A model generated the notes under the pieces. It ran no database searches, was not told where the DNA came from, and saw only the letters and a list, made by a program, of their open reading frames with translations. Source: Fidelibacterota bacterium (GTDB lineage Bacteria > Fidelibacterota > UBA8477 > JABMPR01). From it: a stretch of DNA of 46,390 nucleotides. The number at the start of each line of letters is the position of its first letter. Position 1 is the first letter of the stretch. Shown piece by piece: positions 9,821-40,389 of this stretch. The stretch is from the NCBI GenBank assembly GCA_013202385.1, contig JABMOT010000171.1, positions 1-46,390 on the forward strand. The letters are read 5' to 3'. The position numbers and the translations under genes were made by a program.

Positions 9821-11848
9821 CTACTTAAGAATTATGAATTTGCCGGTTTTGTCGCCCAGAGATGAACTCACGTGGTAAAGATACACGCCAGGGGCAACCT
9901 CACGATTGGATCTGCTGACGAGATCCCATTCAGCGGTGGCTGTGTTGGTCTCAGGAGCATTTTCGATACCGCGTGAATCTGTGGGCTGAATCATTTTTAC
10001 AAAATCACCATCCAGGGTGAATATCCTTACAACAGCATCCTCAGGCAAATTGATAAAAAATAATCGATCTTTCCACTGGGACGAGGAAGACGGTGTGGCA
10101 TTGTTCCAGGGGGCAGATGCACGATAAGGGTTGGGAACAACCAGAATATCATCGAGGGTATTCACCAAACTTTTCCCAGTTGCCGTGATAAAATCGCTGG
10201 TGGCCAGCTCCATATTGAAATATTTGTCCGAGTAGCCAGTCACAATCAGAGAATAGGTATAATCGTATCCAAACAACACATCAGAATCAAAAACACTGAC
10301 ATAGGAATCGCCAGTACTCGTGAGTTCAGCCTCGACTTCGGCCTTGGAAAGCACCCTCAGGGTGTCATAGATGGGTAATCCTGCAACCGTTCGTTCTTTG
10401 AACTTAGCCAGGATGTAGCCGGTAAAGTTTGGATGCGCCATGGATGCGCTGGGATCCCAGGTAACATCCACACCTTGGAATACATTATCAGCATCCAGAA
10501 CAGCTCCAATATTCAATTGCGCCAAAGGCGGAATTTCCGTCTGATCCACCTGGAAATTTTCTGCAACCAATGTTTTCGCAACCTCCATATCCTCTACAAG
10601 ACGGATAAAACTGTAAATCCCGGCGCGATCAGCATCTGCACCCACCCCGATGGCGAAGACCACCTCAATGGAATCGCCATAGGCCAATGAATCAACGGGA
10701 CCAAATGTGGTTATAGCACGATAATCCCCTTCATTCACACCTCCACCCAGAAAAGGTGGCAGCTTGAACAATTTGTCAAAGGTGGTTTTCCCGATGGCAT
10801 TTGTCCACATGGCGGCATCCCCTGAAAAATCCTGACCAATAAAGGAGGTGGTGTAGGACTTGGGTTTCATATATGGTGAACTGTGAATCATCTGCATGGC
10901 TAAAACACCGGGGGTCTGATATACACCCACTGGATTTGGGTTTGCAAAATCATCATTGGCATTATCATGGAGATAGCTACCTGAAACCGTTGAGAGGTCC
11001 AGTAGACTTGTATCTACTTCAGAGACATAGCCCCGATTATCACCATCAAACATGATGGTTAAGGTTGAATCACCCACAAACTGAGAAATATATGGCCAGG
11101 CGGCGGTATCCTGATCCATCTGGTATTCCATATATGGGAAGAGTTTTAATTCATCCCAGCTCGTTGTAAGACACAAGGCAAGATCGTCACGATTCACAAA
11201 ATCCGCTTCTGCGTCCCAGGTGGTCAATTTGCTTACATCCCCATCCATCCTGAACGTAAAATGCACATTTTGGAGTGTGGAAAGATCATCTGCAAACCCA
11301 TCCCCTGTCGTATCCACACCTACATTTTTAAAGAAATATCGGAAGATGATAAAATCGTCTGCAAAGTTGAGACCATAACTATAAGCATGCTGTGTAATCT
11401 CAAGACCTAGGGGAATATGTGTATCGTTGACTTTAATTGCGTCTGTAAATTTGGTCCATGAATGCTCGACCAATCCATTCTGGAGTGTTTCCATTTGAAC
11501 CAGTGCCAAAGGGGTGTACTCTTTGTCTTCAGTCGTGCTGGTTCCCCGGGCGCCATTCCGGGTCCCTGTCAGCCACAAGGAGCCTCGATAGAGGTACGAG
11601 TTCCCTGAGCCACCGGGCCAATCTGCAGAAGGCGTACGTTCGCGATATGAGTCATCCCCGATCATGGAAAAATTGGTGACGCGCATCCAAAGTGTGCCGT
11701 TCCGATGGTAATTGAAGTCATAGGGCACCAATTCACTCTTTTTAAATAAGGATACTTTTTTGTTCTGGAACGACATAGGCTCCCCCGCTGCCTGGAGCAA
11801 CAAACTGGTAAATATCAGGGTCAAATAGAGGGCTAACTTTCGGTTCAT
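9821..11848 (-). CDS. secreted TBDR-partner protein #1 with variant VVPNPY CTD
   Basis: Start at ATG 11848 (AGGAG RBS); signal peptide; C-terminus ILVVPNPY...LFFINLP...RIFTLDGD...WDL...PGVYLYH...GKFIILK. Confidence 0.82.
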   Translation of the reverse strand: MNRKLALYLTLIFTSLLLQAAGEPMSFQNKKVSLFKKSELVPYDFNYHRNGTLWMRVTNFSMIGDDSYRERTPSADWPGGSGNSYLYRGSLWLTGTRNGARGTSTTEDKEYTPLALVQMETLQNGLVEHSWTKFTDAIKVNDTHIPLGLEITQHAYSYGLNFADDFIIFRYFFKNVGVDTTGDGFADDLSTLQNVHFTFRMDGDVSKLTTWDAEADFVNRDDLALCLTTSWDELKLFPYMEYQMDQDTAAWPYISQFVGDSTLTIMFDGDNRGYVSEVDTSLLDLSTVSGSYLHDNANDDFANPNPVGVYQTPGVLAMQMIHSSPYMKPKSYTTSFIGQDFSGDAAMWTNAIGKTTFDKLFKLPPFLGGGVNEGDYRAITTFGPVDSLAYGDSIEVVFAIGVGADADRAGIYSFIRLVEDMEVAKTLVAENFQVDQTEIPPLAQLNIGAVLDADNVFQGVDVTWDPSASMAHPNFTGYILAKFKERTVAGLPIYDTLRVLSKAEVEAELTSTGDSYVSVFDSDVLFGYDYTYSLIVTGYSDKYFNMELATSDFITATGKSLVNTLDDILVVPNPYRASAPWNNATPSSSSQWKDRLFFINLPEDAVVRIFTLDGDFVKMIQPTDSRGIENAPETNTATAEWDLVSRSNREVAPGVYLYHVSSSLGDKTGKFIILK

Positions 11849-11870
11849 AATGTCTCCTAGGATCACTGGA

Positions 11871-14720
11871 TTAAAACTTCAGCGACAAGCCGAGTTTAAA
11901 CTGCCGCTCTGCGGGGTAGATCAGGGGTGTCCTAATGATCAAATTGGACAATTCCTCCTTGTAAATGATGTCAGGTGGATTGTCATCCCCGGGATCCTCA
12001 TCCTGGTTGAAATAGCTGGTGTAAATACTTTGGTGCACATCGTTATTGAGGGCGTTGTAGATATCAAGATTGAGCTGCAGGGTTAATGCATTCACCTCAA
12101 AACTACGGCTAATACGGATATCCAGATTGTCATAGGAAGGTAAGCGTTGATCGTTTACAGCTCCCAATACGCCATAGCTGGAAAAGGGTTTTCCAGTTCC
12201 GTATTCGTATTGAAAGTTAGCCACCCAATTTCGGGTAATGGACTTCAGTGCCGGGAGACCTTTGTTTGAATACAGTCCCAGGTTTACGTTGGAGCTGATC
12301 CGGCGGTCAAAATCAAGGGGATACATTTTCTTGTCATAGGGATACAATTTTACCCCCCCAGTTGAGGAATTTCGTCCTGTGGCGACAGAATAGGATACAT
12401 TCCCCTGGAGACTCCAGAAGCCTATCTTCTGCCGTTTAACGGCCAGCTCAGCACCCTTTACGTTGGCATAATCCCCATTCACATACCGGTTGACTTCCGT
12501 ACCATCAGGAAATACAAATTTCTCGTTGTTAACCAGATCTGACACGTCTTTGAAATACCCAGTGATGGACACTTTCAGACTGGGCGTAAACAAGTGTTCG
12601 AAGGAAATATCATAGGCCACAGTCTTTTCCGGTTTCAGAGCTGGGTTGCCTACCCAGTTTCCAACTTTGGTCAAGCTCTGATACTGATAGTTACGGAACA
12701 GATAGCGACCATCGGGTCTCTGGAAATAATGACCATAGGTAAAAAAGAGGATATCCCGATCAGAAATTGGATGTGAAATACCAATTCGGGGGCTAATCTG
12801 ATGACTGGCTTTGGCTTCCTGAGGATCGTTAAATATGGCATATCCCAGGCTGTCATAGCCTAATACGGGATTGGACATATTCCCTGGATATTGAACAGGA
12901 TCGCCGGTTCCATTGGGATTAAAATAGTCATAGCGAAGTCCTATAAGGGTGACCAGATCATCCTTAAATTCCATCTTGTCCTGGACAAACATTCCGAAGT
13001 CAAGGTCGTTCTTTTCCCAGATATCTTTGCGGAGGCTATTCAGGGCAAAATCGGTTTCCTCGGAGACGGAGGACCAGGTAATATCCGTTATCTTGGTGTT
13101 GTTCAGGTTGAACTGCCAACCTGCTTTGAGCATATGGTACTGGTCAAGCTGGGAGGTGAGATCTCCCTTAATCAGGTAGGAACTTACCTCTTGATTGCGA
13201 TATTCTGAATCATCGCCTCGCATCCACCAGAACTCGTATTCGCGTTCCCGTCGTTCAGGCCGAGGACCTTCCACTTCCCGATCCCATTGAAGCAGTTCTT
13301 CAGTATCACCATCCCCATCACGATCGGCATAGTCTTTCATACCATTCTCATAACTTGAGTTCAAAACCTGGGCGCTGAGCTCAAAAAAGGTATTGGATGA
13401 AACGGTATAAGTGAACACACCATAAAGCTGGGTGCTGTTTTTAACTCGGGATGTAAGGTGGTTCAATGGGGCATCAAGATAGAAATTCTGATGGAACCCT
13501 ACTGCCACTGAGTCTGAATCATTCAAGTTTATGTAATAAGGCGTTGAAAGGCTGTCGATTATACCAGAGCTGTACAGATTTGTATCCAGAGCATTCTCGA
13601 CGTACAAATATCGGATCAGCGTATCATTGCTGGCACTGAGATCTTCCACAAACTCATACAGGTCACTTTGAAAATTTTCTCCAGGGCCAAATTTTCCAGC
13701 CTGAAAATAGAAAGAATTCCATTCCTGCTTGGTCACATTACCACCAATGGACAGTTTGGCGCTGTTTGAGAGTCTGTAGGTCACTTTGCCCTGGTAACTT
13801 TGATTAAAGGCATCCTGATTCAGGTAATTGCCCTGCTTTCGGTCAAGGATGTCTCCTGAAATGGCAAATGTAAGACCGGGAAGAATGGGACCGCTTAGTG
13901 AAAAGCGATAATTATTTTCCAGCTTCTGCTGATATTTCGCATCCAGGCGCCAGGCATCTTTCGGCATGAGCGTTTCATTCAGTGAGGCAAAATCCGTGGT
14001 GGTGGAATACAATGAACCTGAGAAAGAGTCATCTCCTTCTTTCATTGCCAGGTTGAGCACGCCCGATTGAACATTACCATACTCTGCTGAGAATCCTCCC
14101 AGGGATACTTCCATCTGCTGCACGGCATCTTTTGGTACTCCCAATGTGAAGCCTCCAAAATCACCGGTATATCCGGCTGAAGCGTCCCGAATAGGAATGC
14201 CATCGATGACTACCAGCACTTCGCCGCTACGACCCCCGCGGAAGTTACTGCCAACAGCACCGGCTTGATTCTGAGCAATCCCAATAATGCTTTCTACAGG
14301 TTGCACTTCCATTTCTTCGGCTGATACAATGTGTTTTGAGGAAAATTCATCTTGATTCAAAAGGGTTCGTTGAGCGACAACCAGGACTTCTTCCCCGCTA
14401 CTGATAATTTCCGCTTCCATTTTTAAATCCACATAGCGCGTCAGATCAATGGATACCCTAACATCTGTCACTCGAATCGTTTTATAACCAATATAAGATG
14501 TCACAATGGTGTAGGTACCTGGGGGGACGTTCAAAATGACGTAGAAACCATCTTCATTGGTGGAAGCTCCCATATTTGAGTTATCAATAAAGACATTGAC
14601 ACCGATCAGGGGCACATTTTCAGCATCAGTGATAATGCCTGTGATCTTACCACTGGTTCCAGCCTGCAACATTGACATCATCCCTGTTAGAATAATGAAA
14701 GTGTGCAAATATCTTTTCAT
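11871..14720 (-). CDS. TonB-dependent receptor #1 with N-terminal carboxypeptidase-regulatory-like domain
   Basis: GKITG...GFYVILNVPPGTY; plug motifs FRGGRSGE..IDG and GGFSAEYGN..SGVLN; barrel motifs GLRYD, SPRIG, NPALKPEKT; C-terminal F. Confidence 0.92.
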   Translation of the reverse strand: MKRYLHTFIILTGMMSMLQAGTSGKITGIITDAENVPLIGVNVFIDNSNMGASTNEDGFYVILNVPPGTYTIVTSYIGYKTIRVTDVRVSIDLTRYVDLKMEAEIISSGEEVLVVAQRTLLNQDEFSSKHIVSAEEMEVQPVESIIGIAQNQAGAVGSNFRGGRSGEVLVVIDGIPIRDASAGYTGDFGGFTLGVPKDAVQQMEVSLGGFSAEYGNVQSGVLNLAMKEGDDSFSGSLYSTTTDFASLNETLMPKDAWRLDAKYQQKLENNYRFSLSGPILPGLTFAISGDILDRKQGNYLNQDAFNQSYQGKVTYRLSNSAKLSIGGNVTKQEWNSFYFQAGKFGPGENFQSDLYEFVEDLSASNDTLIRYLYVENALDTNLYSSGIIDSLSTPYYINLNDSDSVAVGFHQNFYLDAPLNHLTSRVKNSTQLYGVFTYTVSSNTFFELSAQVLNSSYENGMKDYADRDGDGDTEELLQWDREVEGPRPERREREYEFWWMRGDDSEYRNQEVSSYLIKGDLTSQLDQYHMLKAGWQFNLNNTKITDITWSSVSEETDFALNSLRKDIWEKNDLDFGMFVQDKMEFKDDLVTLIGLRYDYFNPNGTGDPVQYPGNMSNPVLGYDSLGYAIFNDPQEAKASHQISPRIGISHPISDRDILFFTYGHYFQRPDGRYLFRNYQYQSLTKVGNWVGNPALKPEKTVAYDISFEHLFTPSLKVSITGYFKDVSDLVNNEKFVFPDGTEVNRYVNGDYANVKGAELAVKRQKIGFWSLQGNVSYSVATGRNSSTGGVKLYPYDKKMYPLDFDRRISSNVNLGLYSNKGLPALKSITRNWVANFQYEYGTGKPFSSYGVLGAVNDQRLPSYDNLDIRISRSFEVNALTLQLNLDIYNALNNDVHQSIYTSYFNQDEDPGDDNPPDIIYKEELSNLIIRTPLIYPAERQFKLGLSLKF

Positions 14721-16270: not shown

Positions 16271-16294
16271 GGGAAATCTGAGATCAGCTTTCCC
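16271..16294. promoter_or_regulatory. inverted repeat upstream of TBDR #2 (operator or 5' hairpin)
   Basis: GGGAAATCTGA-GA-TCAGCTTTCCC, 11-bp arms with one mismatch, just before the AGGAG RBS. Confidence 0.4.
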
Positions 16295-16312
16295 AGAGTC
16301 TAGGAGAAATAC

Positions 16313-18976
16313 ATGACATCAATCTTTAAGAGCTTTCGATATATTGCTCTTTTTCTGCTTAGCATTGAGGTGAGTTATGCAGGAGCGGGGAAAATCGTGG
16401 GGACGGTTACAGATTACGAAACTGGCAGTGCTTTGCCATACGTGAATGTGATTATTCACGAACTCAATATTGGTGCTTCAACAGATATCAATGGCTATTA
16501 CATCATTTTAAATATTCCTCCAGGAGAATATTCAGTGAGTGCTTCATTTATCGGATATCAAAATACAAAATATGAAGGTGTACAGTGTGCCACGGGACAT
16601 ACTACCGTACAGAATTTCACTCTCCCCTCTGCTGTGATCTCAGGCGAGGAGGTGGTTGTTATTGCAAAACGCCCCTTGGTTCAGAAGGATTTGACTGCCT
16701 CCCAGAAGATTACTACCTCGGCAGAGATAAATGCTATGCCTGTGGAAAGTTTCCTGGATGTTCTCACTACCCAGGCAGGTGTCAACACGGGAGCAGATGG
16801 AGCTATCCACATCCGCGGCGGTCGCAGCAATGAAGTTGGCTTCTATATTGATGGCATATCAGTAGTAAATCCCTTTACAGGGTCCCTGGCAATGAATGTT
16901 TCCAATAATGCGCTCCAAGAAATGAAAGTTATATCAGGTGCCTTTAATGCTGAATATGGAAACGCCATGAGCGGTATCATTAATATTCAATTGCGCGAAG
17001 GAGGCGAACTACTCGATGGCAGTGTGACCTACTACACTGGCGATTATCTTTCCAACAATTCGCAAGTTTTTCCCAATATTGACGCTTATAACCCGATGGC
17101 CAACTCAGTTTTGGAGGCTGCCCTGACAGGTCCAATTTTGGGTCGCAAATTGACGTTTAATATCAGTGCAAGACTCCACAACAATGGTGGGTATTTGTAC
17201 GGTATTCGCGAACATGCCCCGGAAGACTCAGCCAATTTCCAGGATGGTGATGAATGGTATATAGAAAGCAGTGGTGACAGTAGCTACGTGTCAATGAATC
17301 CCTCAATTAGCGGTAATGGATTGGCCAAATTCACCTGGCGTATTAGCCCCCGCCTGAAAATGTCCTTTCAGGGTCTTTATGATCAGAGTCAATCAAAAGC
17401 CTATGTCCATACATATAAATATAATCCCGATGGTATTTATCAGTATTTGCGTGAGAATGGTGGGATTGCTGTCCGTTTAAATCAATCATTTGGCAGTACC
17501 TTCTACGAATTGAATCTGTACTACAATTCAACCAATTATCGCAAGTATGTATATGAAGATCCAGCGGATCTGCGCTATGTCTCCACATCCAACATTGTTG
17601 GTAGTCCCGGGTCAACCACATTTGCGTTCGGTGGCACGCTAATGGAGCATGACAATAGAAATTCTAAAACCCTGGGAACAAAATTCGACATTACCTCGCA
17701 GATTGGGTCCCATCATGAAATAAAAGCAGGTCTGGATGTTAAAACAGATCATTTGGAATCTGATGATGCCGTTATACTGTATAATGGTCAGCGCTATCGT
17801 GAACCAACTATTCTTCCCGCCAATCTTTCACCCAGTCATTCCACTTATACTGGTGATGCCACTTTCTTTAGCGCCTACGCCCAGGATAAACTTGAGTACG
17901 AAAGTATGATAATGAACGTGGGATTGCGCTATGACTTTTTCGAACCTAATGGTGAGTTCCCCACTAATCTGTTGGATCCTACTGGAACTGCCCAGGCAGC
18001 GGATTCAAAACATTCAATCTCACCCCGTTTGGGCGTATCCTTCCCCATCACGGATAAAGGATATTTACATTTTTCCTATGGCCATTTTTATCAATTACCT
18101 ACGCTGACAGCACTTTATTCCACGTCAATATTCGGCGCCAATATTACACCGTCGTTGGGCTATACGGATCTGAAACCTGAGAAAACTGTGCTCTATGAAT
18201 TTGGTCTTCAGCAGCAATTTGGCGAATACATCGCTCTGGAAGCCATCGCCTTTTATAAAGATATCCGTGATCTGCTGGCTACTCAGTCGATTTATTACGA
18301 ATCCGCAGTTTATGGTCCCTCCAACTACAGCATTCGTTTGAATAAAGATTATGGGACGGTCCTGGGGTATACACTCAGTCTTTCAAAACCCCATGATCCC
18401 GCGAGTCATCTCTCTGGTCACCTGGACTATACCTACCAGACAACAGAAGGCAATGCTACCAACTCAGGCTCCTTTTTCTTCAGCCAATTCTCTGAGACGG
18501 AAGAGGCCAAGCAGATTGTCTATCTAAGTTGGGATCAAACCCACTTGATAAATGGAACCGTCACCTATTCCGTTCCCAATAAATGGGGTATCAGTCTGAT
18601 TGGAAAGCTGGCTAGTGGCTGGCCTTATACTCCGACCATTCCACTGGCAAACTACAATCCGATTCCCAATAGTGAGCGGAAACCCTGGCAGCGGAACATC
18701 GATCTCAGGATGCACAAGAATATCCAGGTAGGTAATTTTGAAACCGTCCTGTTTGCAATGGTGTTTAACCTGTTGGATGAGCTTAATGAACGCTATGTGT
18801 ATGACGATACAGGACAAGCTGGATATACCTATGTAAACCAGAGTTCGGAGGAAACAGCAGAATTCAAAAGCCATTATGGAGAACCGGGCATCCACACCTG
18901 GTCAGAGTACCAGGTTCGTCCTACTTACTATTCTTCTCCAAGATCCACCTATCTTGGCATCACCCTTGAGTTTTAA
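16313..18976 (+). CDS. TonB-dependent receptor #2
   Basis: Signal peptide (SYA); GYYIILNIPPGEY; IRGGRSNEV..IDG; GAFNAEYGNAMSGIIN; GLRYD; SPRLG; LKPEKT; C-terminal F. Confidence 0.93.
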   Translation: MTSIFKSFRYIALFLLSIEVSYAGAGKIVGTVTDYETGSALPYVNVIIHELNIGASTDINGYYIILNIPPGEYSVSASFIGYQNTKYEGVQCATGHTTVQNFTLPSAVISGEEVVVIAKRPLVQKDLTASQKITTSAEINAMPVESFLDVLTTQAGVNTGADGAIHIRGGRSNEVGFYIDGISVVNPFTGSLAMNVSNNALQEMKVISGAFNAEYGNAMSGIINIQLREGGELLDGSVTYYTGDYLSNNSQVFPNIDAYNPMANSVLEAALTGPILGRKLTFNISARLHNNGGYLYGIREHAPEDSANFQDGDEWYIESSGDSSYVSMNPSISGNGLAKFTWRISPRLKMSFQGLYDQSQSKAYVHTYKYNPDGIYQYLRENGGIAVRLNQSFGSTFYELNLYYNSTNYRKYVYEDPADLRYVSTSNIVGSPGSTTFAFGGTLMEHDNRNSKTLGTKFDITSQIGSHHEIKAGLDVKTDHLESDDAVILYNGQRYREPTILPANLSPSHSTYTGDATFFSAYAQDKLEYESMIMNVGLRYDFFEPNGEFPTNLLDPTGTAQAADSKHSISPRLGVSFPITDKGYLHFSYGHFYQLPTLTALYSTSIFGANITPSLGYTDLKPEKTVLYEFGLQQQFGEYIALEAIAFYKDIRDLLATQSIYYESAVYGPSNYSIRLNKDYGTVLGYTLSLSKPHDPASHLSGHLDYTYQTTEGNATNSGSFFFSQFSETEEAKQIVYLSWDQTHLINGTVTYSVPNKWGISLIGKLASGWPYTPTIPLANYNPIPNSERKPWQRNIDLRMHKNIQVGNFETVLFAMVFNLLDELNERYVYDDTGQAGYTYVNQSSEETAEFKSHYGEPGIHTWSEYQVRPTYYSSPRSTYLGITLEF

Positions 18977-18988
18977 TTGAGGTCCAAT

Positions 18989-28308: not shown

Positions 28309-28424
28309 ATTTGACTTTCCTCCATTAAATGTTGTCATAAAAGATAATCTGAAAATCCTACGAAGTAAGTATGATTCCTGTACAAACTGATCACATATTC
28401 CCACCTGAATCTGTACAACTAGGC

Positions 28425-28460
28425 ACAAAAAAAAGGCGAGCATAACTCGCCTTTTTTTGT
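28425..28460 (-). terminator. Rho-independent terminator after the 28476 gene
   Basis: ACAAAAAAAAGGCGAG-CATAA-CTCGCCTTTTTTTGT; an 8-U tail on the minus strand. Confidence 0.85.
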
Positions 28461-29786: not shown

Positions 29787-29902
29787 GTTTTGTTCTCCTT
29801 CTGTTGTTTGCGATTTATACATGCCAAACGCGTAAGATTATACAATTGAACGCGCTTTTATGCACATGTTTTTATTCTATTTGTTAATATTTTAAACAAA
29901 CT

Positions 29903-31184: not shown

Positions 31185-33305
31185 CTAACGTATTACGATA
31201 AATTTTTCAAGGATAGAGCGACCATCAGGCTGCTCAAAATGTGCAATGTAAATCCCGCTGGAAATCACCTGTAGAGCATCTGTACTTAACAGCCAAAACT
31301 CATCTCCACTGCCGTCCGTATGCTGGATTGTCTTGATGAGATCCCCGCGTTCTGTATAAATTCGTATTGTGCATACTCCAGGAATGTCATAAAAAGCGAG
31401 CTTATCAGGTTGCCCGAGAAAAGCCTCCTGATTGATATTGTATGGATTTGGAACAATGCGAACCTTTTCCAAATTGCCAGCTTTTCTTTTTAAGGTTGCA
31501 GCCTGGGTCGTACGGGTATAAAATCTATTACTATGCAATGACCCAGAGGGATTCAATGTGGTATTATTTTCACTGCCATCATTAAAGGCCACCAAATAAT
31601 AAAAATAATTTTGACCACGAACAGGTGAGATGTCATCATAGTAATAGCTAAGCTCCGGATTATCCGTTCCAAATCCACAGGCGAAGATTTCTTCGAAAGT
31701 TGTATCCAGCTCACCTATGGCCCTGAACAGACGATACCCACCGAAATCCGCATCATTCTCAGATAAACTGGGTAGCCAGCTTGTGTAGATAAGATCCCCC
31801 CCTGACTCCACAGTGAAGCTCTGAGGTGGCTGTGGTGGTTGTGGAATGGTAAAACCAGAATCATAATTGCGTTTTGCTCGGCCAAAAGTAAGCATTATTG
31901 AATCTTTGCCTGTATATACCCAACTGTTTTTAAAGACATTCATATCAGTGGTCTCGTTTCCATCAGGCAAAGTAAAGGGTCCATTATCTCCGGGTGTATT
32001 GTAGGCCTGCTGCCAACGCTCTCCAATCACTCGGCACATTTCCCGACTCAAGCCGTTTATACCCTCTGCTTCCACAATATGAATACTCTCGCCGAGTGCC
32101 AGATCGAAGGGACCATAGGTCATCATGACATTGGTGCCTCCGCCATCGTTGTGTGCCTTCCAGGGATCAAATGGATCCGTGATATCACCACCTGTAAAAA
32201 CTTCATCCATCCGAGTTGTATCCCCCATGTTCGACCCGCCAAAAGGATGGCCCGAAAGCATTTCATAGAGATCACTCATGGCGTCAACATTCTCGATTCG
32301 TTGATCACCTATTTTTGGATAGGTATCACCGGCATGCCAACCAAGGAATACAGGTTGGGCAATCCAATCTTCAGGATCCAGTGCCGATCGATCCACATGG
32401 AGAACAACAGAACCCGTATGATGCGGGGATGTCAATCTGCCCGTAGCTGTTAAATCTGGACCGCCAATATTATCGAAGGTATTCTTTTCCCCTTGTCCAG
32501 CCCAAGAGAAACCTGCCCGGAGCCAATCTACAATGGGATTATCGGGCGTAATTGCTTCTTGATAGTGAAGTGAATAATCCTCTCCACGGCGTGTAACCCA
32601 TGTGTGTTTACCCCAACTCTGTCCATCACCGATGGTCCAGTTGGCTTCTCGACCCATTGAATAGCGTGTTCCCCAGCCAATCCTTACACCGAGCAAAGAA
32701 TCTGTGAGTTCTATATCTGCATCCCAATCGGCATTGCCAGTATTGGTGAAGGTAAATTCTTTAATGAAGTAGTTGTCATGATATTGCTGACTAAAAGCGT
32801 AAATTTTGCGGGTCATAGTCAAACCCATGGAAGAATTCACAATATTTGTGATAATTCTGTCTGCAAGCTGATCTGGGTCGATGGCATCTATCTCACCAGC
32901 AAAGATGACTCCGAGATCATTGCCATCCACATAGACATTAGGGGGTTGGAAACGACTGGTTTGGGTCAGCTCCATTGGAAATAGACCGATGCCCTCAGCA
33001 TCCTGGGTGTAATACACACCATATCTGGACCAAAAGGCACCATTCTTATCTTTAAAATCTCGAGAAGCTGCCCATGCACGTTTGATGACGGCATTATCCT
33101 GGAACCGATAGTCAGCTGGCCAGATCATACCTTCGTAATAGCTGTTATTCCAGCCTCTCTCAGATCCATAGGCAGAGAATTGACTCTGGAGACTACCAAT
33201 ACGAACATAACGTTTCAGGGATGCATCGACCTGACCTTGAACCATGGACAATCCAAGTAAAAGGACAAAGCTCAAAATTGCGATGATACTACGACGGATC
33301 TTCAT
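31185..33305 (-). CDS. secreted TBDR-partner protein #3 (FN3-like domain, variant IVPNPY CTD)
   Basis: Signal peptide; TGATG overlap with TBDR #3; PQPPQPP linker, FGGYRLFRA; CTD VRIVPNPY...FYDIPGVCTIRIYTERGDL...SGIYIAHF...KFIVIR. Confidence 0.85.
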   Translation of the reverse strand: MKIRRSIIAILSFVLLLGLSMVQGQVDASLKRYVRIGSLQSQFSAYGSERGWNNSYYEGMIWPADYRFQDNAVIKRAWAASRDFKDKNGAFWSRYGVYYTQDAEGIGLFPMELTQTSRFQPPNVYVDGNDLGVIFAGEIDAIDPDQLADRIITNIVNSSMGLTMTRKIYAFSQQYHDNYFIKEFTFTNTGNADWDADIELTDSLLGVRIGWGTRYSMGREANWTIGDGQSWGKHTWVTRRGEDYSLHYQEAITPDNPIVDWLRAGFSWAGQGEKNTFDNIGGPDLTATGRLTSPHHTGSVVLHVDRSALDPEDWIAQPVFLGWHAGDTYPKIGDQRIENVDAMSDLYEMLSGHPFGGSNMGDTTRMDEVFTGGDITDPFDPWKAHNDGGGTNVMMTYGPFDLALGESIHIVEAEGINGLSREMCRVIGERWQQAYNTPGDNGPFTLPDGNETTDMNVFKNSWVYTGKDSIMLTFGRAKRNYDSGFTIPQPPQPPQSFTVESGGDLIYTSWLPSLSENDADFGGYRLFRAIGELDTTFEEIFACGFGTDNPELSYYYDDISPVRGQNYFYYLVAFNDGSENNTTLNPSGSLHSNRFYTRTTQAATLKRKAGNLEKVRIVPNPYNINQEAFLGQPDKLAFYDIPGVCTIRIYTERGDLIKTIQHTDGSGDEFWLLSTDALQVISSGIYIAHFEQPDGRSILEKFIVIR

Positions 33306-36256
33306 CAGAATTTAAACCTCATACCAATGGTGAATTTGCGAGGATCCAAAAAGGTTAGCGAGCGATAATTGGGCATATCAATATAGGATCGTGTATCCCT
33401 GCGACGCTCATTCTCCAAGTCAATATCCGGATCATTGTCCGGGTTTGCCACCATGGGATCATACTCCACATCGTCATCCCGATACACTCCAACATAATCG
33501 TCACCCGCCTCAATGTCTTCTTCAAATGAAAAATGCAGTGACTGAAGATAGTCGATATAATCAAACTGATCTGAGAACCCACTATAGCGCAAATATTTTT
33601 TATCGAACACATTGGCAACATCACAGAATAATTCAAGATTCCTGTCACCCAGAGCCAGAGATTTCTGCAGGCGAAGGTCCACATTCCAGCGAGGTGCCCA
33701 TTGTACGTATTTGTCAATAAAAAGGAGACTGGACAGGTTGAATTGGCTTCCCGTTTTGTAATCCCCAAGAAAACTCAGTGTGAATCCGCCCAATGGGTTT
33801 ATGCTCAGAACTTTGGGACCAAATGTTGAAGGCGTACGGAAAGCGATATTTGCTCTAAAATAAGGTTGCGGCCGTGGTCGGTCATCCTTGACATTCACCT
33901 GTTCGTAATCCCGCTGTTCCTGCGGATTCTGATAATAGCGCAAAAGACCAAAATACCCACTCGTCTTTACCATATAGGTATAGTTAATAAATCCACTAAT
34001 AAATCGGCCTTTAGGTTTGCTAACGGTCACTTCAAACCCACGGATATCCTGGTAATTATTGCTTTGTGCTTTGCGATAATTAACAGAACCATTGGCATTT
34101 CGATAAATGACCCAGCCTGACTGATTGGTGATGTCCTTGTAATACGCTGCCAAATCCAGGAGAACTACATTGTTAAAACCATGGGAATAACCCAATTCAT
34201 AGGCAACTGTCTTCTCCTGATCCAATTCCGGATTTCCCAAATCAGTAACCAAACCATTGGATTCACGTTGAATCCTGAATCGGTAGGTTGATCGTGCTTC
34301 GGAGTAAAAATGACCATAGTTAAAGTAAAGCTTTGAATGATCCGTGATGGGATGAGCCACGCCCAACCGCGGTGCCAGAGTAAGGTTTGATTGAGCCGGT
34401 TTCTTATCAGCCAACTCCTCCAAGGAGCTACCAACTCCCTGTTGAAATAGCTCATCAAAAGCATCCAGAAGATACACATCAGTATTGGAGGCTGAGTACT
34501 CACCACGGAGTCCTAAATTTGCAATAAAGCCCTCATATTCCAGTTTATCCTGGATGTAGGCACTAAACCGTGACGGCGAAACGTCGTAACTCATGTTCCT
34601 GGTCCAAGTATCCTTATCACTTTCCGTATAAGAGCGTACCTGAAAATCATACAGGGTCATTTGCAAGCCCATTTTCAGCTGGTTATTCTCATTGATCTGG
34701 GCGGTGTAGTCACTTTTCAACAGGAAGGAGTTTGTGCGGCTGGTATCGCGCCCCAGATTCATCCAATCGGCCGAATTGTATCCATAAGGAGCTTCATCAT
34801 CATAAAAGCCCGGGAAGATCTCAATCTTTGTTGTGTCTCTATATTCCAGCTCAAAAGTTCGATACTGGGTACGTCCATACTGAGCAATGATTTCAAAATA
34901 GGAATCACTGCTCAACATGTGATTATAGCTCAAATCCACCCTACCGCGATAAATCGAATAGGGACTGAAATATCCAGGTGTAAACAGAACAGCGTCCGTG
35001 GCTAGATTTGCAACGTTGTAACTGCCCCTGAGGAGATTGCCCTCTGGGACGGTCGTCCAGTTCGCCTCATTCACAGAGTGTTCCTCAGCATATAGCAGAT
35101 TTGCGACTAGTTTTTGGTGAGGACTAATCTCATAGTTGAGTTTTAAGCGCGTAGAATTGGAGCTATATCCATCCCGAGAGAGTGGAATAACGAACATTTC
35201 CTTCTCTTCACGGAAGGAAATGAAAAAGCGTAGGGAAGAAAGACCGGGTAATGGACCTCCAAAACCCATATCCAGTGTATGGTCAGGCTTGGTGATGTCC
35301 CCCGACCTGCGATGCTCCCAAATCCACTGCTGTTGAGCGGCGGTGGACGTCATTCCCGCCAGAGGATTATTGCGCTCATTCCAACCCGCAAAGGTTGCAT
35401 ACTGTCGTCGTGTGTATTCATCCCAGCTTCCATTATCCGTGCCACTCCAGGCGACTGTATCATCCAGGTAAGGTCTCAGAAAATAGGAACTCTTATCATA
35501 GGGTGAAATCCCGTAATGTTTGGGTGCTGCGGGACTGACCTGATAATATAAGGAGCCCTTGTAATGATCTGCGGAACCCTCAGCGGTGATAACATTGACG
35601 ATACCGGACCGGATATTTCCATATTCTGCATTAAATCCACCTGACTGAACCTGAATTTCTTCTACAGAGCTTAGACTAATGGTGGTCACTGGTGCATTGG
35701 AACGGCTGTCACTTAGCAGAAATCCATCCATCATAACTGCAGTTTGATAAATACTACCGCCTCGCACTTCCATATTTTCCACACCAGCTTGAACACCGAG
35801 GACAGATGCAACGGATGAAATGGGCAATTGTTCAATGGATTCTGAATTGACATTCAGTTGGCTTCCGGAGAGGTCTTTCCGGACGATTGGCCTTTCAACG
35901 ATCACTGTGATGGACTGCATTCCTAGCACTTCAGGTGAAAGCTTAATATCGATATTGGAGGTGAGTCCGATAACGACCTCAATATTTTCAATTACCGCAC
36001 CCGTATAACCAATAATTGAAGCTTGGATTCTATGTTTTCCAGGTCGGACATTCAGGATGGAATAATAGCCACTCAGATCGCTGGCAGCACCAATACCCAT
36101 ATCTGTCACGATTATATTTACACCCACAAGAGCGTCCCCAGACTCAATATCTGTGATACGTCCACTGATTTTACCGGTTGTGGAGGCATATGATACTGAT
36201 GTTAGCATCATGATGCAAAATGTCAGGAAGCAAAGCCTTTTCTTCATAGGTGACAT
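33305..36256 (-). CDS. TonB-dependent receptor #3
   Basis: TTGKISG, GYYSILNVRPG, VRGG, SGGFNAEYGNIRSGIVN, YIQDKLE, APRLG, NPELDQEKT; C-terminal F. Confidence 0.92.
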   Translation of the reverse strand: MSPMKKRLCFLTFCIMMLTSVSYASTTGKISGRITDIESGDALVGVNIIVTDMGIGAASDLSGYYSILNVRPGKHRIQASIIGYTGAVIENIEVVIGLTSNIDIKLSPEVLGMQSITVIVERPIVRKDLSGSQLNVNSESIEQLPISSVASVLGVQAGVENMEVRGGSIYQTAVMMDGFLLSDSRSNAPVTTISLSSVEEIQVQSGGFNAEYGNIRSGIVNVITAEGSADHYKGSLYYQVSPAAPKHYGISPYDKSSYFLRPYLDDTVAWSGTDNGSWDEYTRRQYATFAGWNERNNPLAGMTSTAAQQQWIWEHRRSGDITKPDHTLDMGFGGPLPGLSSLRFFISFREEKEMFVIPLSRDGYSSNSTRLKLNYEISPHQKLVANLLYAEEHSVNEANWTTVPEGNLLRGSYNVANLATDAVLFTPGYFSPYSIYRGRVDLSYNHMLSSDSYFEIIAQYGRTQYRTFELEYRDTTKIEIFPGFYDDEAPYGYNSADWMNLGRDTSRTNSFLLKSDYTAQINENNQLKMGLQMTLYDFQVRSYTESDKDTWTRNMSYDVSPSRFSAYIQDKLEYEGFIANLGLRGEYSASNTDVYLLDAFDELFQQGVGSSLEELADKKPAQSNLTLAPRLGVAHPITDHSKLYFNYGHFYSEARSTYRFRIQRESNGLVTDLGNPELDQEKTVAYELGYSHGFNNVVLLDLAAYYKDITNQSGWVIYRNANGSVNYRKAQSNNYQDIRGFEVTVSKPKGRFISGFINYTYMVKTSGYFGLLRYYQNPQEQRDYEQVNVKDDRPRPQPYFRANIAFRTPSTFGPKVLSINPLGGFTLSFLGDYKTGSQFNLSSLLFIDKYVQWAPRWNVDLRLQKSLALGDRNLELFCDVANVFDKKYLRYSGFSDQFDYIDYLQSLHFSFEEDIEAGDDYVGVYRDDDVEYDPMVANPDNDPDIDLENERRRDTRSYIDMPNYRSLTFLDPRKFTIGMRFKF

Positions 36257-36264
36257 GATTTCCC

Positions 36265-37251
36265 TTAAAGTGAAAATCTCACTGTCATGCGTTGAACATC
36301 GCCCAGGCGACCAAAAGCCTCGTAGGCGTAATCAAATACAACTCCAAATTGCTGAATACCCAGGCCAAAAGAGAGGTCATTTTCATCGTTTGCCGAGCGA
36401 TAGCCCGCCCTCAAGGACAGCATATCAATGGGTCTGTATTCCAAACCGATCCGTATTTGTTCCGCGTGGGAGCGATAGTGAAGTGCATCGATACTTAAGA
36501 GCATCTGCTGCTTTTTCATCGTTGACCGTTTCAAATCAAAGATGTCCATTGAAATCCCCAGGGTGAAAGCAAGCGGTAATTGGAAACCCTCTTTCTCAAA
36601 GATGACTTCATTGGAAAAATTTCTCACTGACATGCCAAATGCGAGACTATTCCAACCGGTTTTATATATTGTTCCAAAATCGACAGCATTAGCAAAGGCA
36701 AGATTAGATTTAACTGTATCAGCGATCCCTGTTTCATCCGGATAAACACTCTTGCCATAGTTCAAGCCCACATATTTAAAATGTCCACCCACTGAGAATT
36801 TATCGTTGAGCGCTTTAGCATAGCCGATACCTGCTGCATAGGCTGAGGGTCTTAAAATTTCGGTATCCACATAACCCTGATCATTATCCCAGCGCTGCGT
36901 GCCCTGAATATCGCCGTAGTCAACGCCAATATAGGATAAAGCGAGAACGCCAAGATTGCCATCTCCGGGTTTATAGGCTACAGAAAAGGAATTATAGTTG
37001 ATGTCAGCAAACCATTGGTTTTGACTGGCCATGAAGTTGATCGCTTCTTTCATGCGTGCCATTCCAGCAGGGTTAAAGAACACTGAGGCGGATTGCATTT
37101 CCACAGTTGTCAATGCGCCAGCCATACCACCCGCCTTCGCATCGGAGTCTACACTTAGAAACTGACCACCAGACTGGGCTAGCTTGATTTGGCCGAATGT
37201 TGCTGAAAAGCCAAAACACAGGATGAGGACGAACACGTAAATCTTTTTCAT
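36265..37251 (-). CDS. PorV/PorQ-like outer-membrane beta-barrel #3
   Basis: Start reassigned to ATG 37251 (MKKIY..., signal peptide); GQFLSVDSDAKAGGM and FNPAGM motifs; DYAY..FG.LG...R..VRFSL end. Confidence 0.85.
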   Translation of the reverse strand: MKKIYVFVLILCFGFSATFGQIKLAQSGGQFLSVDSDAKAGGMAGALTTVEMQSASVFFNPAGMARMKEAINFMASQNQWFADINYNSFSVAYKPGDGNLGVLALSYIGVDYGDIQGTQRWDNDQGYVDTEILRPSAYAAGIGYAKALNDKFSVGGHFKYVGLNYGKSVYPDETGIADTVKSNLAFANAVDFGTIYKTGWNSLAFGMSVRNFSNEVIFEKEGFQLPLAFTLGISMDIFDLKRSTMKKQQMLLSIDALHYRSHAEQIRIGLEYRPIDMLSLRAGYRSANDENDLSFGLGIQQFGVVFDYAYEAFGRLGDVQRMTVRFSL

Positions 37252-37276
37252 GCGAAACCTTCTAGACCTTCTCATC

Positions 37277-38296
37277 TTAATTGCCCTCCAAAAGTGCCAA
37301 ATGGAAATTCTGAGATAACATGGCTTCATTCGGTAGAAATTGTATCAAATATTCCTCTGCATCCAGAGCGAAGCGGGTCATGGTTTTCACCTCGGGACAG
37401 TATGCAATCAGTTCCATGGAAATACTGTTGTCTAGAGGGGTCTGTCGCTCACCTATTGCGTTCCATATGGATATTGACATGTACGAGTTTGTATTGAAGG
37501 ATACGTCACCACTCCCCATTGTATTGCGATCCCATAAGAGATACCCCGCATCGTTCGCACTTTCCAGTTCTATGTGCATAAGGGAATCTGGATATTCCAA
37601 ATAGACTGAGTCAGCCCTTAAGGTTTCAATGGCCAAGCTAAATCCCAAGCCATCGCTAAGATAATCTTTAGCAGGTGCCAGGATTACATTGGCTAAACTG
37701 CTGTCTTCCACGCGATGGACCCTTGTCGTTGAAGATTGTATCACAATAGCACCATGAAAAGATATCTGCCAGGCATCACCTGCGCCCACGGAACCTTGTG
37801 AAAAACTCAGATAAAAGGGTGTGGTTTCCGATCCGATAATCATCAAGGTATCCAGATCCAAACCGGTCAAATTGGCAGCACCTAGAGGATTATATTTATA
37901 GACCAGTTTAATGCCGTCCACGACCATGGTATTTTCATCGTAAGTCAATGATAGAAAACGCAATGCAGCTAAAGTATCCGCTCCATCGATAAATACATAG
38001 ACATCCGGTTCAATTAAAAAATCGTCATCGAACCAGGATGATCCGATTCGTTCTGTTGCAGCGAGAGCTGCGTCAATATCCTGACCAACCCAGACTGGCC
38101 CCAGTGGTCTCAAATCTGCCCCAAAGAGATTCACCCAGAGTGTATCGTTTAGAAGCTCGCAGGCAGCTTGTTCTGTATCATTCAGTACATAGGTTTCCTC
38201 CTGATAGAGCTCGCAATGTTGTAAACCGAAAATTGGGAGGATGAAAAAGATCCCAAGTAGGGGACGTTTAAATAGTATGAATATGCTTTTTATCAT
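37277..38296 (-). CDS. hypothetical exported protein, probable lipoprotein
   Basis: Hydrophobic N-terminus ending in LQHC followed by acidic residues; lies within the operon. Confidence 0.7.
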   Translation of the reverse strand: MIKSIFILFKRPLLGIFFILPIFGLQHCELYQEETYVLNDTEQAACELLNDTLWVNLFGADLRPLGPVWVGQDIDAALAATERIGSSWFDDDFLIEPDVYVFIDGADTLAALRFLSLTYDENTMVVDGIKLVYKYNPLGAANLTGLDLDTLMIIGSETTPFYLSFSQGSVGAGDAWQISFHGAIVIQSSTTRVHRVEDSSLANVILAPAKDYLSDGLGFSLAIETLRADSVYLEYPDSLMHIELESANDAGYLLWDRNTMGSGDVSFNTNSYMSISIWNAIGERQTPLDNSISMELIAYCPEVKTMTRFALDAEEYLIQFLPNEAMLSQNFHLALLEGN

Positions 38297-38307
38297 TTGA
38301 AAACCCC

Positions 38308-40389
38308 TTATCGGATAACAATAAATTTTCGGAAGGTGGATTGCCCATCCGGTTGCTCAAAGTGGGCTATGTAGATGCCACTGACCACCACCTGCCTGTA
38401 TTCGGTGACTGAGTCCCAGGATTCATCACCGCTATTATCTGTATGTTCAATTGTTTTTATCAAATCTCCCCGCTCTGTGTATATGCGAATCGTGCACATA
38501 CCCGGAATGTCATAAAAGTAGAGACGATCTTCTCCTGAATTACTAAACTGCAATGATTTAGATGCAATATTGAATGGATTGGGAACCACCCTAATTCGAT
38601 CAAGTGATCCGGCAGGTCGCTTAAGAGATGCCCCTATATTTGTCATCGTGTAGAATTTACTACTGTACAAGGGGGCTCCAGGAGAAACCTGATTGCTATT
38701 CCCATCATCATAAGAGACGATATAATAGAAATATTTAAATCCACGTTTGGCTTTTACATCCGCAAACTCGTTAGTCAGGTTGGTCACATCGCAGGAAAAG
38801 ATCTCTTCGTAGCTGGTATCAGGTTTATGCATGGCCCTGTAAACTTTATATCCCATAAAACCGGGATGTCCCTCGGCATTGGAACTCCAGGATAGTCCTA
38901 TCCGATCACCACCAGATGTAACGGTAAACGTTTCAGGTGGAGGAGGTGGTTCAGGTACCGCATAATCAGCTTCATAGGTGTCATGAGCGCGGCGAAAGGT
39001 TTGCATGAGCGAATCTTCTCCAGTAAACACCCATTTATCTTTGTATTCATCTTTATCAACAGGAGCACTTCCATCAGGATTAAGAAGCTCCCCAATCGCA
39101 ACATTACCATCAAACCAGTTGCCTCCAACCTCATAACACATTTCTCGGTTTATGCCTGCAGCACCCTCAGCAATAACAATATGAATTTTTTCTCCGGGTG
39201 CTATATCATAGGGACCATAAGCAATAAACTGCGAATATCCACCTGCGTCAGTGCCCCAGGTATCCGCATAACCACTTCCGATATCCTCAGCCTGTGACAT
39301 GCCAGGATGACCAGCTGCCATATGCAGGTAGCGTTGCTGCATTTTAACGGAATTAAATTGATCATTGCTTTGGGTAATGGGCTGATCAGAGCCGGTATAT
39401 AATGTTGTTGAGGGTTGATAAACATCATCGCTTGCATCGGTGGTTGATTTATCGGCGTGAAGTGTGACTACACCAACAAATTGCTGGGCACTCAAGTGAC
39501 CATCTCCACCAGTTCCATAATATGGTGAACCAATATTGTCATGACCATCAGTTGATTTTGAATGTAAACCATGCCAGGAATAGGCCGCCCGCATCTCATT
39601 GTCTGCCGGGATTTCACCAATCACTTCATTGACTGTGTTGGCGCCCCAGGCAGTATTTTGAGGAGCCCAATAACCACCGGCACCATATGGACCACTTTCG
39701 CGTGTAGGAGCGTAGCGGTACTGCATAGCGAAATAAACGCCAGTTAATGTTTCATTAAAAGTTGCTCCTGATGAACTATAAATACCGGTATTCTCAAAAA
39801 CATAATCAACGACATGATAATTATCGTGATATTGGTTTGAAAAGCCACGGATGGTGCGAGTCATGGTGATTCCCACTGAGGTGTTAACCACGTTTTCAAT
39901 TCTGCGATCTTCCTTCATAGTAGCATCAACGCTATCGACAATATCAAGATATTGCAGGATACTGGCAGGATCACCATCCACGAAAACACCAGGATGATCA
40001 TATTTCCCATACATTTTAAATTTTTGGATAAGTATCTCTGTTTTGGTATCCACGGGTCCACGCGGACCAATATGGGCGACCTTAAAGTCATAGTTCACGT
40101 TAACCTGGGGATCGATAAAGTCAGTTGTTCCAATCCAAAGCGCTTTGGCTGCCTGTGCATCCTGATAGCTGTATTGTGCTGGCCAGCGCAATCCATCCTG
40201 TTGATCTCTTATCTGTCCCGTACGGCCAACCTCGACCTCACAACCTTCTTCAGAATACCAGTTATGCAAATTGCCAACAGCAATCCACTTGCTTTCAGCA
40301 GCAGATACTATATTCATCACAAAACCAATAGCCATCAAAAAGACTAGGGCATGCGCATGAATTTTACTTTTCATTCTATTGTTTACCAT
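38308..40389 (-). CDS. secreted TBDR-partner protein #4 (FN3-like domain, variant VVPNPF CTD)
   Basis: Signal peptide (VSA); colinear with partner #3; PEPPPPP linker; CTD IRVVPNPF...FYDIPGMCTIRIYTERGDL...SGIYIAHF...KFIVIR. Confidence 0.85.
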   Translation of the reverse strand: MVNNRMKSKIHAHALVFLMAIGFVMNIVSAAESKWIAVGNLHNWYSEEGCEVEVGRTGQIRDQQDGLRWPAQYSYQDAQAAKALWIGTTDFIDPQVNVNYDFKVAHIGPRGPVDTKTEILIQKFKMYGKYDHPGVFVDGDPASILQYLDIVDSVDATMKEDRRIENVVNTSVGITMTRTIRGFSNQYHDNYHVVDYVFENTGIYSSSGATFNETLTGVYFAMQYRYAPTRESGPYGAGGYWAPQNTAWGANTVNEVIGEIPADNEMRAAYSWHGLHSKSTDGHDNIGSPYYGTGGDGHLSAQQFVGVVTLHADKSTTDASDDVYQPSTTLYTGSDQPITQSNDQFNSVKMQQRYLHMAAGHPGMSQAEDIGSGYADTWGTDAGGYSQFIAYGPYDIAPGEKIHIVIAEGAAGINREMCYEVGGNWFDGNVAIGELLNPDGSAPVDKDEYKDKWVFTGEDSLMQTFRRAHDTYEADYAVPEPPPPPETFTVTSGGDRIGLSWSSNAEGHPGFMGYKVYRAMHKPDTSYEEIFSCDVTNLTNEFADVKAKRGFKYFYYIVSYDDGNSNQVSPGAPLYSSKFYTMTNIGASLKRPAGSLDRIRVVPNPFNIASKSLQFSNSGEDRLYFYDIPGMCTIRIYTERGDLIKTIEHTDNSGDESWDSVTEYRQVVVSGIYIAHFEQPDGQSTFRKFIVIR

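Follow-up and report, generated by a model that had tools for sequence, protein, structure and literature searches.

Does the C-terminal tail of a secreted protein specify the outer-membrane receptor beside which the protein is displayed, and what might read such a tail? The question is raised by a 46,390-nucleotide stretch of DNA from a Fidelibacterota bacterium (contig JABMOT010000171.1 of assembly GCA_013202385.1, contig C148 in our numbering), called the window below. The host genome is a Marinisomatota metagenome-assembled genome (MAG) of 3.17 Mb in 318 contigs, with an estimated completeness of 72%. The window contains four genes for TonB-dependent receptors (TBDRs) with CarbopepD_reg and Plug domains, T1–T4, each followed, after a gap of at most 35 bp or a slight overlap, by a gene for a large partner protein without Pfam domains, P1–P4. 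For these four partners there are three genes for barrels of the PorV/PorQ family, V1–V3, and the unit orders are T1–P1–V1, T2–P2–V2 and T4–P4–hyp339–V3–T3–P3. An earlier, sequence-only reading had described two classes of type IX secretion system (T9SS) C-terminal domain (CTD) here, four canonical tails and four variant ones on the TBDR partners, and had proposed that the variant class tracks the PorV paralogues, possibly as an addressing code. The arrangement that we consider probable is one in which a PorZ-like tail class, borne by Sec-exported partners made of a β-supersandwich of the carbohydrate-binding type and a fibronectin type III (FN3) domain, is bound by a private 14-strand barrel of the PorV/PorQ family that serves as carrier and probably as permanent anchor, with the partner displayed beside the TBDR. 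The functional claims made here are all computational, open reading frames (ORFs) were called mechanically, and the related genomes and loci, from the Fibrobacterota–Chlorobiota–Bacteroidota (FCB) group, share descent and are not independent of one another.

The eight CTDs and the gene order were found in the window sequences as described, although two of the four canonical tails belong to genes (3264–5408 and 7119–8804) that fall outside the interval to which they had been assigned (9821–38610). The canonical tails carry the motif YPNPFN...K.MLLLK. The variant tails read [IV].[VI]VPNP[YF], an insert of 12–20 residues, F.[ND][LI]P..[CA].[IV]RI[YF]T..G, W, G[VI]Y and [KR][FI]..[IV][KR]. They occupy approximately residues 562–681 of P1 (9821–11866, minus strand, 681 residues with a signal peptide; tail 9824–10183), 1031–1144 of P2 (18977–22411, plus strand, 1144 residues; tail 22067–22408), 603–706 of P3 (31185–33305, minus strand, 706 residues; tail 31188–31499) and 587–693 of P4 (38308–40389, minus strand, 693 residues; tail 38311–38631). 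A hidden Markov model (HMM) built from the four variant tails, which scored P1, P2 and P3 at 114, 124 and 107 bits, respectively, matched 17 ORFs of the genome over its full length at 53 bits or more; the next match, at 30.1 bits, was partial. The corresponding HMM of the four canonical tails matched about 110 ORFs, and gave the variant ORFs 20.0 bits or less. At fixed thresholds, the genome contains 17 variant and 104 canonical CTD ORFs. So clean a split is far more than chance would give, and the variant tails stand as a distinct class, as had been claimed. With the NCBIfam model TIGR04183 (cut-off 23 bits), of the four canonical proteins of the window, the three scanned (K2, K3 and K4) passed at 44.3, 30.1 and 39.9 bits, whereas whole P1–P4 stayed below the cut-off (16.6 bits, no match, 15.3 and 18.6 bits); a Pfam scan of P1–P4 at E ≤ 0.01 returned nothing, PF18962 (Pfam cut-off 27 bits) included. 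The 17 variant tails have in common L..I.VVPNPY, the variable insert of 12–20 residues, I.F.NLP..CTI.I.T..G.LV.TIEH, an invariant W, G.Y.Y and GKFAVIK.

The variant tails have the features of the type A fold, a C-terminal β-sandwich of about 80–100 residues with PNP, G.Y and a basic end, and their alignments show invariant P, P, F, P, G, W, G and Y. When the tails were taken in isolation, 16 of the 17 matched TIGR04183 at E ≤ 1 (best 4.8e-7; the P1 tail scored 22.7 bits), 15 matched the C-terminus of the PorZ model NF052228 (best E 3.7e-11) and 12 matched the PorU model. For canonical tails, the corresponding counts were 18 of 18 on TIGR04183 (best 8.7e-16) and 10 of 18 on the PorZ model (best E 8.2e-7). 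The type B model TIGR04131 was matched at E ≤ 1 by only two of the 17 variant tails (best E 0.022), and by one of 18 canonical ones, which rules out a type B identity for the variant tail. Among sequences in the Protein Data Bank (PDB), the only matches of the variant profile at E < 0.01 were PorZ (5m11; 24.1 bits, E 2.5e-4) and PorU (6za2; 22.5 bits, E 7.6e-4), and no CTD of a cleaved cargo appeared at that threshold. The canonical profile matched FlgD, the F. johnsoniae cargo CTDs 8glk_D and 8glj_D, PorU and the RgpB CTD, with PorZ at only 16.1 bits. PorZ (5m11) ends in ...RFAVIR, and the C-terminal motif ...[KR]FAVI[KR] is common to it and the variant tail. In an AlphaFold2 model of P4, with a predicted local distance difference test (pLDDT) of 87.4, the CTD (residues 594–692) was predicted to superimpose on that of PorZ with Z 11.8 and a root-mean-square deviation (rmsd) of 2.0 Å over 84 residues, at 26% identity. 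Full-length PorZ (two β-propellers and a CTD; NF052228 cut-off 260 bits) was not matched at that cut-off by any variant protein, the matches being confined to the CTD region of that model (positions 655–757 or so) at 15–33 bits, and no bona fide PorZ above the cut-off was found in this 72% complete MAG. The variant tails are nearest to the PorZ CTD in both sequence and fold, and we take them to be a type-A-like, PorZ-like subclass of T9SS CTD, the weak sequence matches being a ranking rather than proof.

The variant class does track the PorV paralogues. In the host genome, a barrel gene lies directly downstream of 12 of the 17 variant genes and of none of the 104 canonical genes. Ten of the 12 adjacencies are complete TBDR–partner–barrel triads, and the other two are cut by contig ends. 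In five cases (7119–8804 in the window; C76; C93, twice; and C89), a canonical-CTD gene lies directly downstream of the barrel as the fourth gene of the unit. Orthologous loci were collected with the P2 protein as query, giving 67 loci in records titled Marinimicrobia, KSB1, Calditrichaeota, Fidelibacterota, Ignavibacteria/Melioribacteraceae, Rhodothermales and others. The variant tail is present in 60 of these, the other seven ending before the tail; a barrel gene comes next in all 59 that have downstream DNA, and a receptor lies directly upstream in 56 of 60, the other four being cut by contig ends. All 41 related genomes, from 10 family-level groups, gave matches to the variant profile, and these are not copy numbers. 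In five further genomes, where coordinates were matched by eye from tables, 29 of 35 variant tails (7/8, 3/4, 8/10, 8/10 and 3/3) were followed on the same strand by a PorV_fam start at most 600 bp downstream. The order of TBDR, variant partner and barrel is conserved across several FCB phyla.

V1 (8843–9808, minus strand) lies 12 bp downstream of P1, and V2 (22408–23460, plus strand) overlaps the P2 stop by 4 bp. V3 (36265–37329, minus strand) is the sole barrel for P4 and P3, the latter having no barrel of its own downstream. The longest ORF of V3 runs into the end of hyp339; a Met at 37251 (MKKIYVF..., signal-peptide-like) is the likelier start and agrees with ortholog lengths of 335–353 residues. 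On the PorV/PorQ family model NF033709 (cut-off 90 bits), which has 19 matches in about 17 genes of the genome, V1, V2 and V3 scored 160.5, 182.0 and 170.0 bits. They remained below both equivalog cut-offs, with 48.9, 61.4 and 62.2 bits on NF033710 (PorV; 250 bits) and 80.7, 84.6 and 64.2 bits on NF033711 (PorQ; 220 bits). The best PorQ-like gene of the genome is on C217 (114.6 bits). A candidate for the housekeeping PorV, the fifteenth barrel (on C89), scored 203.4 bits on NF033710, under the cut-off of 250 bits, compared with at most 75 bits for the paralogues, and is followed by a gene for an M6-like protein with a canonical CTD; four of the five further genomes likewise have one far higher-scoring PorV_fam gene (320–342 bits) elsewhere. 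The core T9SS is present in the host genome, with PorU at 689 bits and SprA at 732 bits. Among solved barrels, the nearest is a shuttle, PorV of F. johnsoniae (6h3i, 97.2 bits).

Two other candidate tail–barrel pairs were noted in this genome. On C90 (L101 1362–4030, minus strand), some 4 kb away from the gene for SprA (C90:11248–17532), a 526-residue protein with a weak glycosylhydrolase-like β-propeller match has a PorZ/PorU-like C-terminus (23–24 bits; TIGR04183 16.9) and is directly followed by a 364-residue weak PorV_fam barrel (49.5 bits). This pair may be a further tail–barrel class, perhaps the PorZ/PorQ analogue of the lineage. On C172 (L013 3926–7246, plus strand), a 661-residue protein has a tail that matches the variant and canonical HMMs weakly (20.7 and 23.5 bits), and a 316-residue weak PorV_fam barrel (47.3 bits) comes 390 bp after it, possibly a third kind of pair.

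A complex of V2 (residues 27–350) with the last 120 residues of P2 was modelled from alignments of 66–67 rows each. The interaction prediction score from aligned errors (ipSAE) was 0.92 (0.92–0.93 in three runs), compared with 0.00 for the best control; the pLDDT of the partner was 78 or higher, and 83% or more of contacts were common to the runs. Of solved complexes, 116 of 157 attain the calibration mark for such models, compared with 2 of 215 mismatched pairs. In the model, V2 is contacted by VVPNPY, IRIYT..G, the G.Y strand and the C-terminal strand of the tail. The tail is thus predicted to dock on its co-encoded barrel, in keeping with the pairing first proposed. As judged from the comparisons and from this one predicted complex, class-level recognition of the PorZ-like tail by a private barrel family is well supported.

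The partner bodies belong to a family of more than 1000 homologs that are named only "fibronectin" or hypothetical and have no Pfam domain. P4 consists of a signal peptide, a β-supersandwich (about residues 28–525), an FN3-like domain and the CTD. Its modelled body (residues 28–525) resembled the N-domain β-supersandwiches of the glycoside hydrolases (GH) GH15, GH94, GH65 and GH116 and galactose mutarotase, with Z 18–19 and rmsd 3.1–3.8 Å over 244–280 aligned residues, the FN3-like domain coming next. Because a common fold does not show function, we only infer from this model that the body binds glycans. In P2, residues 380–460 or so contain runs of D.D.DG-type acidic repeats that look by eye like calcium-binding, thrombospondin-type-3-like sequence. 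Among the receptors, T1 (11871–14720, minus strand; PF00593 84.6, PF13715 64.3 and PF07715 27.5 bits) and T2 (16313–18976, plus strand; PF00593 81.5, PF13715 65.6 and PF07715 41.9 bits) are the first genes of triads 1 and 2; T3 (33305–36256, minus strand) matched PF13620 at 50.7 and PF07715 at 25.4 bits, and T4 (40425–43691, minus strand) PF13715 at 67.7 and PF07715 at 45.9 bits. On the SusC/RagA model TIGR04056 (cut-off 368), T1–T4 scored 41.9–70.6 bits (T1 60.1), and no match in the genome reached the cut-off. SusD (PF07980) had no match in the 72% complete genome.

We propose that the partner would cross the outer membrane through SprA, and that the extracellular loops of the barrel encoded beside it would then receive its tail, as modelled for P2 and V2, in place of the housekeeping PorV. 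The barrel would serve as private carrier and probably as permanent anchor, by analogy with PorQ for PorZ and PorP/SprF for type B cargo, and the partner would be displayed beside the receptor to capture substrate, in a genome that gave no SusD match. That the tail is retained and that the barrel is an anchor is suggested by the likeness to the PorZ and PorU CTDs and by the layout of one barrel gene per partner; the partner presumably co-operates with the TBDR. A bolder version, which strikes us as rather unlikely, would give every receptor locus its own T9SS barrel, with loops that read a paralogue-specific PorZ-like tail. Each glycan-binding partner would therefore be exported, sorted and fixed beside its own TBDR, and receptor, barrel and T9SS-delivered lid would form a three-part machine, the functional equivalent of SusCD in Marinisomatota and several other FCB phyla, assembled via a secretion system and not by lipoprotein export.

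Several observations weigh against the carrier-and-anchor arrangement. Five of the 17 variant genes in the host genome lack an immediately adjacent barrel: P4 has hyp339 in between, P3 has its barrel upstream of the receptor, a gene on C228 has the barrel after the receptor, and C93 contains two tandem variant genes with a barrel 2–5 kb upstream. The NF033709 cut-off was also exceeded in the Bacteroides thetaiotaomicron control, an organism that is not known to have a T9SS; family membership alone is therefore no proof of a T9SS role, and the model probably also catches BamG-like barrels. Since complexes of PorV with CTDs have already been solved (8gl6 and related), the score of the docking model may reflect likeness to these, and the model says nothing on a preference among barrels or over the housekeeping PorV. 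The PDB sequence matches to PorZ and PorU are weak at their E-values of 2.5e-4 and 7.6e-4, and the class-specific insert, modelled in P4 with low confidence (pLDDT < 50, residues 605–617), lies outside the predicted interface. Finally, the variant tails keep their likeness to type A on TIGR04183, one paralogue elsewhere in the genome reaching 25.4 bits, so PorV and PorU may yet handle them.

Might each barrel paralogue read only the tail of its own partner, making the tail an address that sorts the partner to its receptor locus? We regard such a strict lock-and-key as possible but doubtful. It was prompted by P3 and P4, which share V3 and whose tails had been said to have near-identical stretches. 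The stretches quoted are indeed so, but the whole CTDs are 66% identical (69/104 aligned residues). The CTD is nevertheless better conserved than the body (36%, 202/561), as expected from the proposal, and P1 and P2, with a barrel each, have differing CTDs (37% identical). Among 136 pairs of variant proteins, median identity was 37% for the CTD and 28% for the body, and P3–P4 had the largest excess among the well-aligned pairs.

Species of the same genus differ in the architecture of this locus, some having T4–P4–hyp–V–T3–P3 with one barrel and others Va–T–P–T'–P'–gap–Vb with two; the architecture sets compared were loci L092–L099 against L081–L091 and L100. In the 12 one-barrel loci, the window included, partner CTDs are 51–71% identical, and at least 61% in 11 of the 12, whereas in six orthologous two-barrel loci they are 43–52% identical. 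The bodies (36–40% and 35–37%, respectively) and receptors (40–45% and 40–43%) are alike in the two sets, and the barrels of the two-barrel loci are 47–50% identical to each other. V3 is orthologous to Va, which stands in front of the P3-type unit (59–61%), and not to Vb (45–49%). In the same direction, a one-barrel locus in KSB1 has a CTD identity of 63% compared with 44% for the body, neighbouring triads with a barrel each have 36–37% compared with 28–30%, and in a CTD tree the B tails of two-barrel loci sit on a long branch (0.71; support 100/99). All of this would be expected if tails matched individual barrels. However, the contrast between shared and separate barrels is probably a single event seen in related genomes, and could be faster divergence after the second barrel arose or conservation under a shared one. 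In the CTD tree, the B tails of one-barrel loci group with the A tails at only 82/75 support, and in an approximately unbiased (AU) test plain orthology (monophyly) of the B-type CTDs is not rejected (p 0.36). Transfer of the P3 tail onto P4, by domain swap or by gene conversion, was considered and need not be assumed in view of these values. The C93 cluster was also considered as a second shared-barrel case and rejected: the excess is modest (CTD 55–63% compared with body 44–53%, measured against orthologs of the truncated first gene), and in the tandem pair itself the CTD (55%) is less conserved than the body (65%), a counter-example to the lock-and-key.

A mirror-tree comparison of 11 triads gave a Mantel correlation of r 0.77 between CTD and barrel, with a partial r of 0.56 given body and TBDR, values inflated because of one recent whole-locus duplicate (C213/C287). 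Without the duplicate (n = 10), r fell to 0.52 and the partial r to 0.39 (p 0.006), so the proposed covariation persisted as a small-sample hint. In the same set, the partial r with the barrel was 0.38 for the TBDR and 0.08 for the body. Rank correlations with the barrel were alike for CTD, TBDR and body (0.46, 0.52 and 0.48), a point against the lock-and-key. The predicted interface consists mostly of class-wide invariant motifs, and even among paralogues its conservation (0.61) exceeds that of the other positions (0.44). On the barrel, specificity-like positions, conserved among orthologs and variable among paralogues, are about two-fold enriched at the interface (8/45, compared with 23/279 elsewhere), in favour of paralogue-specific reading. 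On the CTD there is no such enrichment (5/40 compared with 9/80 elsewhere), nor is there one for the positions that switch in two-barrel B units, either on the CTD (8/19 at the interface, 32/83 other; p 0.49) or on the barrel (8/37 compared with 34/244; p 0.16). What stands of the addressing code is the class-level coupling, together with the CTD contrast between one- and two-barrel loci and the partial Mantel correlation; the AU result, the interface counts and the C93 pair tell against its strict form. Each tail is likely to be tuned to its own barrel, and a strict address for each paralogue is possible.

We think it improbable that the barrels are private shuttles without an anchoring role, which would ferry the partners from SprA and leave PorU to cleave the tail, with the partner then attached to lipopolysaccharide or set free. 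In favour of this explanation, the nearest solved barrel is a shuttle PorV, PorU is present and the tails are type-A-like. Against it, the tails are nearer to the two known uncleaved CTDs, those of PorZ and PorU, than to cleaved cargo CTDs, and the PorQ model gives most of the barrels a higher score than the PorV model does, by the values given above. One barrel gene per partner gene would also suit a stoichiometric anchor better than a recycling shuttle.

That the partners are ordinary cargo, whose divergent type A tail goes to the housekeeping PorV and is removed by PorU, and the barrels a FadL-like passage for hydrophobic or amphipathic substrates or BamG-like structural proteins, is very improbable: the retained type A motifs with their weak TIGR04183 matches, the place of the barrels in the FadL/PorV superfamily (a weak Toluene_X match for V3; 26.6 bits for V1 on the BamG model, cut-off 250), the B. 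thetaiotaomicron match and, according to part of PMC12578637, the binding of a surface lipoprotein by BamG loops without a T9SS role are in its favour, but it leaves unexplained the separate tail class and its exclusive barrel adjacency, the joint persistence of gene order and tail class across phyla and the confident tail–barrel model, and V1–V3 score far higher on the PorV/PorQ family (160–182 bits) than on BamG or FadL models.

In addition to the carrier-and-anchor genes proper, the one-barrel unit of the window contains hyp339 (37277–38296, minus strand), which lies between P4 and V3 and encodes a predicted lipoprotein with a hydrophobic leader, Cys28 and β-sandwich domains. Cys28 is invariant and is followed by acidic residues in the consensus (SCEDYEE). 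The gene is kept in 12 of 12 other one-barrel loci fetched, and none was found by phmmer in the two-barrel loci. Its model (pLDDT 78.5) gave only generic β-sandwich fold matches (Z ≤ 8.7); it matched no NCBIfam family, and in Pfam only HmuY, weakly (E 0.0026). The canonical type A CTD proteins of the window are K1 (3264–5408, minus strand; canonical HMM 113.5 bits), K2 with FG-GAP repeats (7119–8804, minus strand; PF18962 31.7 bits), directly downstream of V1, K3 with GHL10 and Big_5 domains (25180–28443, minus strand; PF02638 118.2 bits) and K4 (28476–29822, minus strand). A DUF92/TIGR00297 membrane protein with an N-terminal membrane extension of about 240 residues is encoded just after triad 2 (23575–25089, plus strand), and a 172-residue ORF antisense to P2 (19850–20368, minus strand) is most likely spurious.

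According to passages of the current literature, all type A tails use a single PorV shuttle and private carriers serve only type B cargo (PMC12618676), and carrier-bound exit from SprA has been described in part of PMC10994853. PorZ and PorU are named in a review, as far as its passages go, as the two T9SS proteins with retained CTDs, bound to PorQ and PorV, and the same passages speculate that cognate PorV-like barrels may shield CTDs from cleavage (PMC10202324). Full-text searches of the literature, with subscription journals and supplements outside their scope and the Caldithrix genome paper covered in passages, gave no account of the triad or of the tail class. If the carrier-and-anchor arrangement is correct, it would explain how substrate-binding proteins are displayed at the receptors of phyla that lack SusD, in abundant, mostly uncultured marine and sediment bacteria, which carry these triads. 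The triad can serve as an annotation rule for finding such loci, and the one- and two-barrel loci are natural pairs for dissecting CTD–carrier matching.

How does this unit compare with known systems? The type B analogy drawn in the sequence-only reading is apt, and a closer precedent is the retained PorZ CTD docking on PorQ. In the attachment complex of Porphyromonas gingivalis, PorZ–PorQ and PorU–PorV, an uncleaved type-A-like CTD binds a barrel of the PorV/PorQ family, by which the protein is kept on the cell surface, as described in part of PMC10202324, and such retention would apply here by likeness. Unlike PorZ, the partners have unrelated bodies of supersandwich and FN3 domains and match the PorZ model only at the C-terminus. 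There are many pairs per genome and not one, operon-like and behind TBDRs, with an insert of 12–20 residues after PNP and barrels under both the PorQ and PorV cut-offs. In the type B system of Flavobacterium johnsoniae, cargo genes are likewise linked to dedicated PorV-like barrels (PorP/SprF), which are needed for secretion and anchor the cargo, and specificity is partial, some cargos using one common shuttle, according to passages of PMC12618676 and PMC9143113. Here, in contrast, the tail is not TIGR04131, the barrels are of the PorV/PorQ family and the cargos are receptor partners, not gliding adhesins. With canonical type A cargo, PorV and PorU, the partners share the fold, the motif skeleton (PNP, G.Y and a basic C-terminal strand), the translocon genes and the modelled contact motifs; they differ in falling under the TIGR04183 cut-off in the window, in the insert and in the FAVIK-type end.

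Beyond the T9SS, the SusC/SusD loci of Bacteroidia also have a CarbopepD_reg TBDR followed by a putative surface substrate-binding partner, with secreted enzymes nearby, here GHL10 and other CTD proteins. The present receptors, by contrast, fall under the SusC/RagA cut-off, no SusD was found, the cargo is of T9SS type instead of a lipoprotein, and a barrel is the third gene. BamG–BamH of the Bacteroidota β-barrel assembly machinery (BAM) is alike in having a 14-strand FadL-like barrel whose loops bind a surface protein, with a paralogue, BamG2H2, paired in an operon, according to part of PMC12578637; BamH, however, is a lipoprotein without a CTD and has no link to a T9SS tail. Set beside these systems, the TBDR–partner–barrel unit extends the known principle of a CTD and its carrier to a type-A-like tail class that has its own PorV/PorQ-family barrels, in many pairs per genome that belong to TonB-dependent uptake loci.

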